From positions 1-32,197 of the IMG/VR virus record IMGVR_UViG_2660237933_000002: a stretch of DNA of 32,197 nt; one strand, given 5' to 3'. Numbering within the stretch: the first letter of the stretch is position 1; each line of letters begins with the position of its first letter. The position numbers and the translations under genes are program-made. Source of the DNA: a virus. Its lineage: Duplodnaviria; Heunggongvirae; Uroviricota; Caudoviricetes. This document shows positions 27,135 to 27,556 of this stretch, piece by piece. Below the pieces are notes generated by a model. The model was not told the DNA's origin. It saw only the letters and a program-made list of their open reading frames with translations, and made no database searches.

Positions 27135-27165
27135 TTGACTGGATTATTATTCCCATTTTATTGAG
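27135..27165 (+). promoter_or_regulatory. Putative moron promoter (TTGACT at 27135-27140 with a weak -10)
   Basis: Consensus-like -35 in the intergenic space upstream of the AT-rich ORF; the -10 is poor. Confidence 0.3.
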
Positions 27166-27182
27166 AAAGTAAGGAAACATTG

Positions 27183-27524
27183 ATGGAATTTTTACTTATT
27201 TCAATAGTTTTGGGACTAATTCCAGCTATTATTGCGAAAAGCAAAGGTCGCTCATTTTTAGGATGGTGGGTATATGGTGCGATGATCTTTATTGTTGCTC
27301 TGGTTCATTCGCTAGTAATCCAAAGAGATGAGAAGGCACATGAACAACAAATGGTAAGCAATGGCATGAAGAAATGCCCTTACTGTGCGGAGTTGATCAA
27401 AGAAGAGGCTATTAAATGTAAGCATTGCGGTAGTGATTTAATTTGCAATGCAGATAGTTCCGTTTCACAAAAAACGGATGATGAATATCTTCAGGAAGCA
27501 AGGCGTAAGGCCGGACTTCTTTAA
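27183..27524 (+). CDS. Moron: two-TM membrane protein with C-terminal zinc-ribbon (CPYC...CKHC), 113 aa
   Basis: AT-rich ORF inserted between T and the tape measure gene; AAGGAAA RBS; ATG at 27183; followed by a strong terminator. Confidence 0.6.
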
Positions 27525-27533
27525 AGAATACAA

Positions 27534-27556
27534 AAACCGCTTCGGCGGTTTTTTTT
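27534..27556 (+). terminator. Rho-independent terminator after the moron
   Basis: AACCGC-TTCG-GCGGTT followed by TTTTTTT. Confidence 0.75.

Follow-up and report, generated by a model that had tools for sequence, protein, structure and literature searches.

A candidate superinfection-exclusion moron with a zinc ribbon beside the tape measure gene of an HK97-like Escherichia coli prophage

Background

Morons are recognized by a set of hallmarks, namely extra DNA between conserved genes, a deviating base composition, a promoter and a terminator of their own, and expression from the prophage (Cumby et al. 2012, PMC3594210, after Juhala et al. 2000). The name was first given to gene 15 of phage HK97, whose product, gp15, is located in the inner membrane and mediates superinfection exclusion by blocking DNA entry, with a specificity that maps to the phage tail; as a class, morons have many functions (PMC3594210). 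Here we analyze an open reading frame (ORF) of 113 residues in IMG/VR record IMGVR_UViG_2660237933_000002, an HK97-like Escherichia coli prophage. The record was considered at its full length of 32,197 nucleotides (referred to as the window), and the ORF lies between the tail chaperone genes G and T and the gene of the tape measure protein (TMP).

Imm of phage T4, which is made by the infecting phage during infection, binds the TMP directly; its residue W50 lies at the interface with the TMP, and mutation of R33 or W50 weakens exclusion (bioRxiv 10.64898/2026.03.06.709160). Tab, from phage JBD26, is a moron located in the late structural operon and directed at the TMP of competing phages, with no sequence similarity to any known protein according to its authors (PMC10884400). 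Few inner-membrane superinfection-exclusion proteins are understood, and the best-studied two, HK97 gp15 and T4 Imm, both converge on the TMP.

The results presented below suggest that the segment at ~27089-27534 of the window is a moron cassette whose product is an inner-membrane superinfection-exclusion protein hindering TMP-mediated DNA entry, a reading to which we assign a probability of roughly one half.

Presence and absence of the cassette in related prophages

In eleven Escherichia phage records, both flanks of the locus match the window at ~98% identity and an insert of ~400 bp is absent. When the junctions are compared by hand with those of phage 606R7, divergence starts within the last ~12-17 codons of T (~27072/27089) and stops just 5' of a terminator stem (~27534); in the MAFFT alignment the left edge of the cassette is misplaced and the right one is visible, and the edges were read by hand. 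The T protein is 100% identical among loci carrying the cassette (filled loci) and ~90% identical in loci lacking it (empty loci). By hand comparison, nine of the ~10 differences between filled and empty loci fall within the last 17 residues, i.e., the 3' end of T (the last ~12-17 codons) travels with the cassette.

Of 80 IMG/VR loci whose T protein is closely related, 9 are filled and 71 are empty, and the distance from the end of T to the start of the TMP gene is 445 bp in the former and 43-45 bp in the latter. When 5,426 complete E. coli genomes were considered, the G/T module was found in 901, a contiguous empty junction in 844, and the ORF in 45 (16 at no less than 99% identity and 29 at ~84%). 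The segment also deviates in composition, with a GC content of 0.35-0.40 across 27100-27550 against ~0.52 in both flanks. Both extra DNA between conserved genes, missing from near relatives, and a deviating base composition are thus present, and the ORF is optional, compositionally foreign cargo of a common tail module.

A first-pass annotation of this DNA, made from the sequence alone, had described an AT-rich 113-residue ORF between the chaperone genes and the tape measure and had read it as a moron. The coordinates, the GC dip and the Pfam assignments of the neighboring genes agree with the description, and the reading is borne out by the absence of the ORF from ~98%-identical phages, by the counts of filled and empty genomes (45 against 844), by the foreign composition and by the slot, which is that of HK97 gene 15. 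The same annotation had set against a moron the case of a conserved structural gene of related tail modules. Conservation in the slot is indeed found (79 of 80 loci, see below), yet the ORF is not a structural gene, since it is dispensable in near-identical phages.

The predicted protein

Compared with the allele at 84% identity, the ORF presents a nonsynonymous divergence (dN) of 0.07 and a synonymous divergence (dS) of 0.82-0.91, i.e., a dN/dS of ~0.08. It is a genuine gene under strong purifying selection.

Two hydrophobic segments are predicted by the Kyte-Doolittle scale (residues 1-18 and 25-46), in agreement with the two transmembrane (TM) helices proposed at first pass, and the AlphaFold2 (AF2) model, with a mean pLDDT of 76, presents a helical hairpin made of helices 2-21 and 25-45. 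The hairpin is followed by a short helix, two beta-knuckles (62-64 and 71-73) and a C-terminal helix. The only Pfam match of the ORF is Zn_ribbon_3 (PF13248), which is matched at 34.7 bits against a gathering cut-off of 27, and the four cysteines C65, C68, C79 and C82, which form two CxxC knuckles, are invariant across 50 homologs. The zinc ribbon announced by the first-pass annotation is therefore present, but its spacing and position differ from those given there: the motif is CPYC-x10-CKHC (residues 65-82) instead of CPYC-x15-CKHC, and it is central instead of C-terminal, because an acidic tail of 31 residues follows it.

The homology and structure searches that had been proposed along with that annotation yielded Zn_ribbon_3, a family of phage orthologs (PHROG 8436) and a link to proteins combining an Imm domain with a zinc ribbon, the latter two being described below. 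A Foldseek search of the AF2 model against the PDB gave local matches to RanBP2/NZF zinc fingers (rmsd ~1.2 A, E>0.1); overall, the PDB structure (Foldseek) and sequence profile searches returned generic zinc knuckles or bL32 only, none at E<0.1. The scan against NCBIfam returned only zinc-ribbon matches at chance level.

Protein family and genomic contexts

PHROG 8436, to which no function is assigned, matches the ORF over its full length (2e-50). A word-indexed search found 1,623 homologs, and an exhaustive profile search found 199 clusters (at 50% identity) at E<=1e-30 and 3,511 at E<=1e-10. Among the best-listed profile matches, the aligned part spans positions ~1-93, i.e., the hairpin and zinc-ribbon core. 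In a set of 50 homologs the conserved core comprises residues 1-86, with invariant positions in the hairpin (G11, P14, A18, K21, G22, S24, F25, W28, W29, Y31, G32, A39 and H42) and in the ribbon part (K64, C65, C68, A69, E70, A76, C79 and C82). The C-terminal tails vary across the family, which includes members with a short acidic helix, a ~90-residue domain, a third TM helix, a second zinc ribbon, or no tail.

The subfamily of 109-115 residues occupies the slot between T and TMP in 79 of the 80 closest viral loci (61-100% identity), and this association persists where T and TMP themselves diverge to ~55-60%. Homologs occupy the same slot in Salmonella FSL SP-016 and Cronobacter prophages, and homologs at 33-37% identity are located directly 5' of the TMP gene in Pseudomonas phages YMC11/02/R656 and D14C and in Klebsiella phage ST846-OXA48phi9.2. 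Other branches are found at prophage ends, adjoining a YafO toxin or an acyltransferase gene; such accessory positions in prophages were counted in favor of the moron reading. The family is uncharacterized, with no curated defense model, solved structure or paper to its name.

Some further arrangements were observed among these relatives. In Edwardsiella prophages (positions 5001-5537 of loci L011-L014), a member of 178 residues with an extra C-terminal domain of ~90 residues is placed between tail genes L and K of a lambda-like tail operon, so the family colonizes more than one gap of the tail operon. In Pseudomonas phage vB_PaeS-D14C (BK061477; locus L185), the slot at 3512-4276 holds two unannotated ORFs on the + strand, a BamE-like lipoprotein (3512-3928) and a zinc-ribbon hairpin homolog (3965-4276), where the record annotates only an ORF of 58 residues on the opposite strand. 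With a lipoprotein and a membrane protein side by side, this slot resembles a double exclusion cassette.

Relationship to Imm_superinfect proteins

Protein gp065 of phage YMC11/02/R656 (195 residues), which is encoded in the slot between the chaperone and TMP genes, combines Imm_superinfect (PF14373, 1.6e-18) with Zn_ribbon_3, a combination that is a widespread architecture. T4 Imm matches the same Imm_superinfect model (7.4e-16). When the profile of our family was compared with that of the proteins combining Imm_superinfect and a zinc ribbon (hhalign), the alignment reached a probability of 99.5% and E = 5.5e-23 over 89 columns. The register across the hairpin is consistent (LP.IIA..[KR]G ... 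LGW), and in a multiple alignment R33 and W50 of T4 Imm fall on our invariant K21 and W28.

In other genera, bona fide genes with the combined architecture adjoin repressor or integrase genes, or phage terminase genes at an apparent prophage edge. A neighborhood of repressor or integrase genes is typical of lysogen-expressed exclusion genes.

Transcription signals around the ORF

A consensus promoter scan upstream of the ORF found no promoter. The first-pass annotation had pointed to a -35-like TTGACT; the hexamer does exist, but it is probably the wrong element, given its TTTATT partner is a poor -10 with no A at position 2, its position reads TTTACT both in a near-identical allele (L104) and in the 84% allele, and a better-conserved, promoter-like block lies 13 bp upstream of it. 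TTGACT is hence probably not a functional -35.

The conserved block was recognized by comparison. The pattern nTGAnn-17-TAnnAT fits 81 of 81 upstream regions of homologs (47 of them distinct, 16 diverged representatives), with the first hexamer overlapping the TGA stop of T and the second ending 27-32 nt before the ATG. The commonest lineage pattern, GTGACA/GTGACT/TTGATA-17-TAGGAT, scores 9.8-12.4 bits, where the 95th percentile of the background is 9.3. Counting only positions that were not fixed by the anchoring, columns around the -10 hold 1.3-1.7 bits and the flanks ~0.5 bits. In the window, TATTAT occupies the position of the TAGGAT conserved in other lineages and ATGATC that of GTGACA/GTGACT/TTGATA, which makes ATGATC-17-TATTAT a promoter-like block that is plausible by comparison and weak when taken alone.

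A side observation concerns the -10 region, where the block (a)tAT-TAGGAT-T (27142-27151 in the window; ~27-40 nt 5' of the homolog starts) keeps its non-consensus GG in 14 diverged lineages. This constraint exceeds what sigma-70 needs, so the block could also be the binding site of a regulator.

Downstream of the ORF, the stem-loop at 27532-27556 folds at -12.2 kcal/mol (z = -3.3), and a terminator scan assigns it to the - strand. The strong terminator reported at first pass is therefore real, but it cannot be claimed for the insert. Phage 606R7 and all 72 ORF-less relatives examined carry it in identical form, and it is included in the empty junction found in the 844 E. coli genomes; since all empty slots of the window's lineage carry it, it is not attributable to the insert, and sequence comparison points to a feature of the tail-operon backbone. 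In every lineage bearing a homolog, a stem-loop with a T-run stands right before the TMP ribosome-binding site, with differing stems and loops. Either the terminator was retained when old deletions emptied the slots, or the cassette inserted 5' of a resident one.

The empty junction between T and TMP in phage HK022 (positions 1957-1979 of locus L188) has a gap of 19 nt and no terminator. The terminator-bearing empty junctions of the window's lineage may be scars of ancestral cassette loss. Moreover, the window has a second strong intrinsic terminator at 25693-25709 on the + strand (ACCCGCCGCTGGCGGGT then T7), just 5' of the major tail gene, and the HK97 record likewise annotates terminators within its tail operon. 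In view of these two terminators and of the HK97 annotation, the late operon seems to hold several, passed only by Q-modified polymerase.

Features of the locus

The features of the locus are presented in Table 1. From 27126 to 27566 (the cassette with its immediate flanks), the window and the SC516 prophage are 100% identical, and the TMP start annotated in RefSeq relatives, including that identical prophage, is a GTG at 27573. The A-run closing G is a likely slippery site for a programmed -1 frameshift that would produce a G-T fusion. The major tail protein (25733-26437, + strand) has a C-terminal immunoglobulin-like domain (Pfam Ig_2/Ig_3, with Hoc-like PHROG matches); immunoglobulin-like decoration is common on siphophage tail tubes. 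No tRNA genes were found in the window.

Table 1. Coordinates of the cassette, its candidate signals and the neighboring genes in the window.
Feature	Position	Strand	Remarks
Tail assembly chaperone G	26437-26823	+	Pfam Phage_TAC_1, 2.8e-58
Likely A-run slippery site for G-T frameshift	3' end of G, 26809-26823	+	GGTTAAAAAAAAGTAG
Tail assembly protein T frame	26835-27125	+	Pfam Phage_tail_T, 1.6e-20
Presence/absence segment (cassette)	~27089-27534	+	~45 bp instead in empty-slot relatives
-35-like hexamer ATGATC	27122-27127	+	Overlaps the TGA stop of T
TTGACT	27135-27140	+	Best partner TTTATT, 16-nt spacing, 8.5 bits
-10-like hexamer TATTAT (5/6)	27145-27150	+	Ends 32 nt before the ATG
Shine-Dalgarno AAGGA	27171-27175	+	7 nt 5' of the ATG, read from sequence
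ORF, 113 residues	27183-27524	+	ATG at 27183
Predicted layout of the ORF product			TM1 (1-18), invariant SKGRSF..WW.YG turn, TM2 (25-46), short helix, Cys4 zinc ribbon, acidic C-terminal helix
Cys4 zinc ribbon	Residues 62-86, 27366-27440	+	Pfam Zn_ribbon_3 (PF13248)
Intrinsic terminator	27532-27556	.	A5-CCGC-UUCG-GCGG-U8; symmetric, potentially bidirectional
Tape measure protein (HK97-type)	27567-30812	+	Pfam Phage_HK97_TLTM 1e-93, TMP_3, Tape_meas_lam_C

Proposed mechanism and alternatives

According to the exclusion reading, a weak sigma-70 promoter lying over the stop codon of T (ATGATC-17-TATTAT) would drive the ORF in the lysogen, and the resident terminator would end the transcript and shield the TMP gene from read-through; during lytic growth, Q-modified polymerase would read through all of these signals. 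The product would insert in the inner membrane by its two-helix hairpin, whose conserved turn (K21-G22-R23 / W28-W29) is reminiscent of the T4 Imm core, and, like T4 Imm and HK97 gp15, would block the incoming TMP from opening the DNA conduit in the inner membrane. The lysogen would thereby exclude kin phages with its receptor retained, and the zinc ribbon, probably cytoplasmic, may act as a small module for protein binding or oligomerization. A function of the ORF in superinfection exclusion or defense is plausible and gains indirect support from the slot held in common with HK97 gp15 and from the homology of the zinc ribbon to that of the Imm-type fusions. We infer four steps of this mechanism, namely lysogen expression, topology, exclusion activity and the TMP as target; the first is in this class because the promoter candidates of the window score under the background 95th percentile.

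Several results weigh against this reading. Regarding expression, the block of the window scores 8.0 where the background percentile is 9.3, and the ORF points in the same direction as the late operon, and its expression could be confined to the late phase. Regarding function, the scan against PADLOC-DB v2 gave two matches at chance level only (E of 1e-3 to 7e-3, on the zinc-ribbon segment), a search of the literature for the family (by RefSeq, GenBank and PHROG identifiers) and for zinc-ribbon superinfection-exclusion proteins found nothing, no member of the zinc-ribbon hairpin family has been the subject of an experiment, and some members reside in non-phage chromosomal islands by efflux or regulator genes. 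Regarding the relationship to Imm, the ORF has no match to PF14373 at E<=1, i.e., its hairpin fails the Pfam model, and the hhalign signal owes its strength to the zinc ribbon, which is a promiscuous module: with split profiles, the ribbon alone reaches 99.7% (5.7e-27), whereas the hairpin alone reaches a non-significant 29% over 21 columns against the combined proteins and 8.5% against T4 Imm.

The topology is a further point of this kind. By charge counting, the SKGRS loop has a net charge of +2.2 (+2 to +3) and lacks acidic residues. This favors a loop in the cytoplasm and a C-terminus in the periplasm, an unusual place for a Cys4 zinc site, which would be expected in the cytoplasm. The opposite topology is indicated by the C-terminal part, which is richer in total K+R, and by the variants with a third TM helix, whose basic flank is on the zinc-ribbon side. 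No recognizable extra domain was found in ten long family members scanned for fused domains that would place the topology.

A more specific proposal, which we consider doubtful, is that the proteins with a hairpin and a zinc ribbon form a diverged T4-Imm-like branch that binds TMPs. Temperate siphophages from Pseudomonas to E. coli would keep the gene by the TMP gene so that an exclusion specificity and its cognate target recombine as a unit, as in colicin-immunity pairs, and the ribbon would contribute something that T4 Imm lacks, such as clamping the TMP C-terminus or a host channel partner on the cytoplasmic face.

Four other explanations were weighed. The ORF could be a late-expressed accessory of lytic growth, transcribed with the tail operon only and acting in the producing infection, for example by closing the dying cell to DNA injected by progeny or secondary phages (cf. 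T4 Imm), or in membrane events during the handling of tails and TMP. This would fit its place and orientation inside the late operon, the weakness of the promoter candidates in the window, the production of T4 Imm by the infecting phage and the tight linkage of the ORF to the TMP gene across genera. It would not account for a conserved -35/-10-like block in a short intergenic region, for a terminator just 3' of the ORF in every lineage, for relatives that adjoin repressor and integrase genes, or for the dispensability of the ORF in ~95% of otherwise near-identical prophages, and is hence deemed unlikely.

Equally improbable in our judgment is lysogenic conversion unrelated to phage exclusion, i.e., a product that changes host physiology, for instance envelope stress, transport, metal handling or interaction with the host, as Lom, Bor and further morons do. 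The repeated placement beside the TMP gene in phages of E. coli, Salmonella, Cronobacter, Klebsiella and Pseudomonas, together with the homology of the zinc ribbon to the Imm_superinfect fusions, is hard to reconcile with such a role, even though morons have varied functions (PMC3594210), some homologs are found in chromosomal islands by efflux and regulator genes, and no curated defense model of PADLOC is matched.

A defense acting after entry is quite unlikely. It might take the form of abortive infection, with the ribbon sensing a phage component and the hairpin permeabilizing the membrane, or of a Tab-like blocker of the TMP in tail assembly. Small effectors with two TM helices are common in defense systems. 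Tab of JBD26 moreover provides the precedent of a late-operon moron that targets the TMP (PMC10884400). Yet the ORF is a single small gene with no recognizable sensor or enzymatic partner and no PADLOC match, a Tab-like block would need a counter-defense for the phage's own tails, of which none is apparent in the slot, and anchoring in the membrane fits a block of entry better than a block of assembly in the cytoplasm. Finally, a functionless passenger carried by tail-module recombination, as its rarity (45 of ~900 modules) and its apparent movement by homologous exchange, including the 3' end of T, might suggest, is very improbable in the face of a dN/dS of ~0.08 at a dS of ~0.85 between alleles, core residues invariant in 50 homologs and conserved flanking signals.

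The exclusion reading has consequences beyond this locus, given the ORF stands for a large unstudied family. The hundreds of E. coli prophages with the same tail genes and an empty slot are natural isogenic controls, and the ORF thus allows a test of whether a small membrane protein by the TMP gene is a general signature of DNA-entry exclusion, and of what the zinc ribbon contributes. If the reading is true, the annotation of thousands of prophage genes labeled "zinc ribbon domain-containing" would improve, and the failure of phage therapy on lysogens would become easier to predict.

Comparison with known systems

HK97 gene 15 also sits between the chaperone and tape measure genes, i.e., the slot is identical and belongs to an HK97-type tail operon. 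In both cases the product is a small inner-membrane protein (a predicted one for our ORF), and the gene is an optional insert with a terminator after it. The sequences are unrelated: gp15 is YebO-like (PF13974, 1.2e-08), whereas our ORF has no PF13974 match at E<=1. HK97 gp15 further differs in having 62 residues, a single hydrophobic stretch as read from its sequence, and no zinc ribbon. Within the pair of HK97 and HK022 the empty slot lacks a terminator, whereas in the window's lineage the terminator stays in empty slots. Exclusion is demonstrated for HK97 gp15, and for our ORF we infer it.

Tab resembles the product of our ORF in its small size and in coming from a moron within a late structural operon. 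Its gene, however, is located between terminase genes, its action falls on tail assembly once entry is complete, and it depends on an anti-Tab partner (PMC10884400); the paper reports no membrane segment in Tab, and the word "transmembrane" does not occur there. Other systems were considered and set aside. The Tai tail-assembly-inhibition systems are placed 5' of the packaging module, and their paper says nothing of zinc or of transmembrane segments. In Pseudomonas phage Fc02, the exclusion genes do not belong to the tail slot (a tape measure is never mentioned in the paper), and one of them is exonuclease-like.

The proteins combining Imm_superinfect with a zinc ribbon, themselves uncharacterized, are alike in having a small hydrophobic helical hairpin followed by a near-identical ribbon, KCPYCAExIxxxAIKC(K/R)HCGSDL, and one of them, gp065 of YMC11/02/R656, has its slot in common with our ORF. 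The difference resides in the hairpin, which in our ORF is without ~10 core residues of PF14373 (the HxN...VLN segment) and, from its sequence, resembles a PF14373 core from which 10 residues were deleted. T4 Imm differs in having no zinc ribbon and one extra N-terminal helix.

Hence, the moron anatomy and the slot are already known, to the point of being textbook material, and what is new is the cargo family, which fails both the gp15/YebO and the PF14373 profiles, yet lies in the slot of gp15 and has a module in common with PF14373 proteins.

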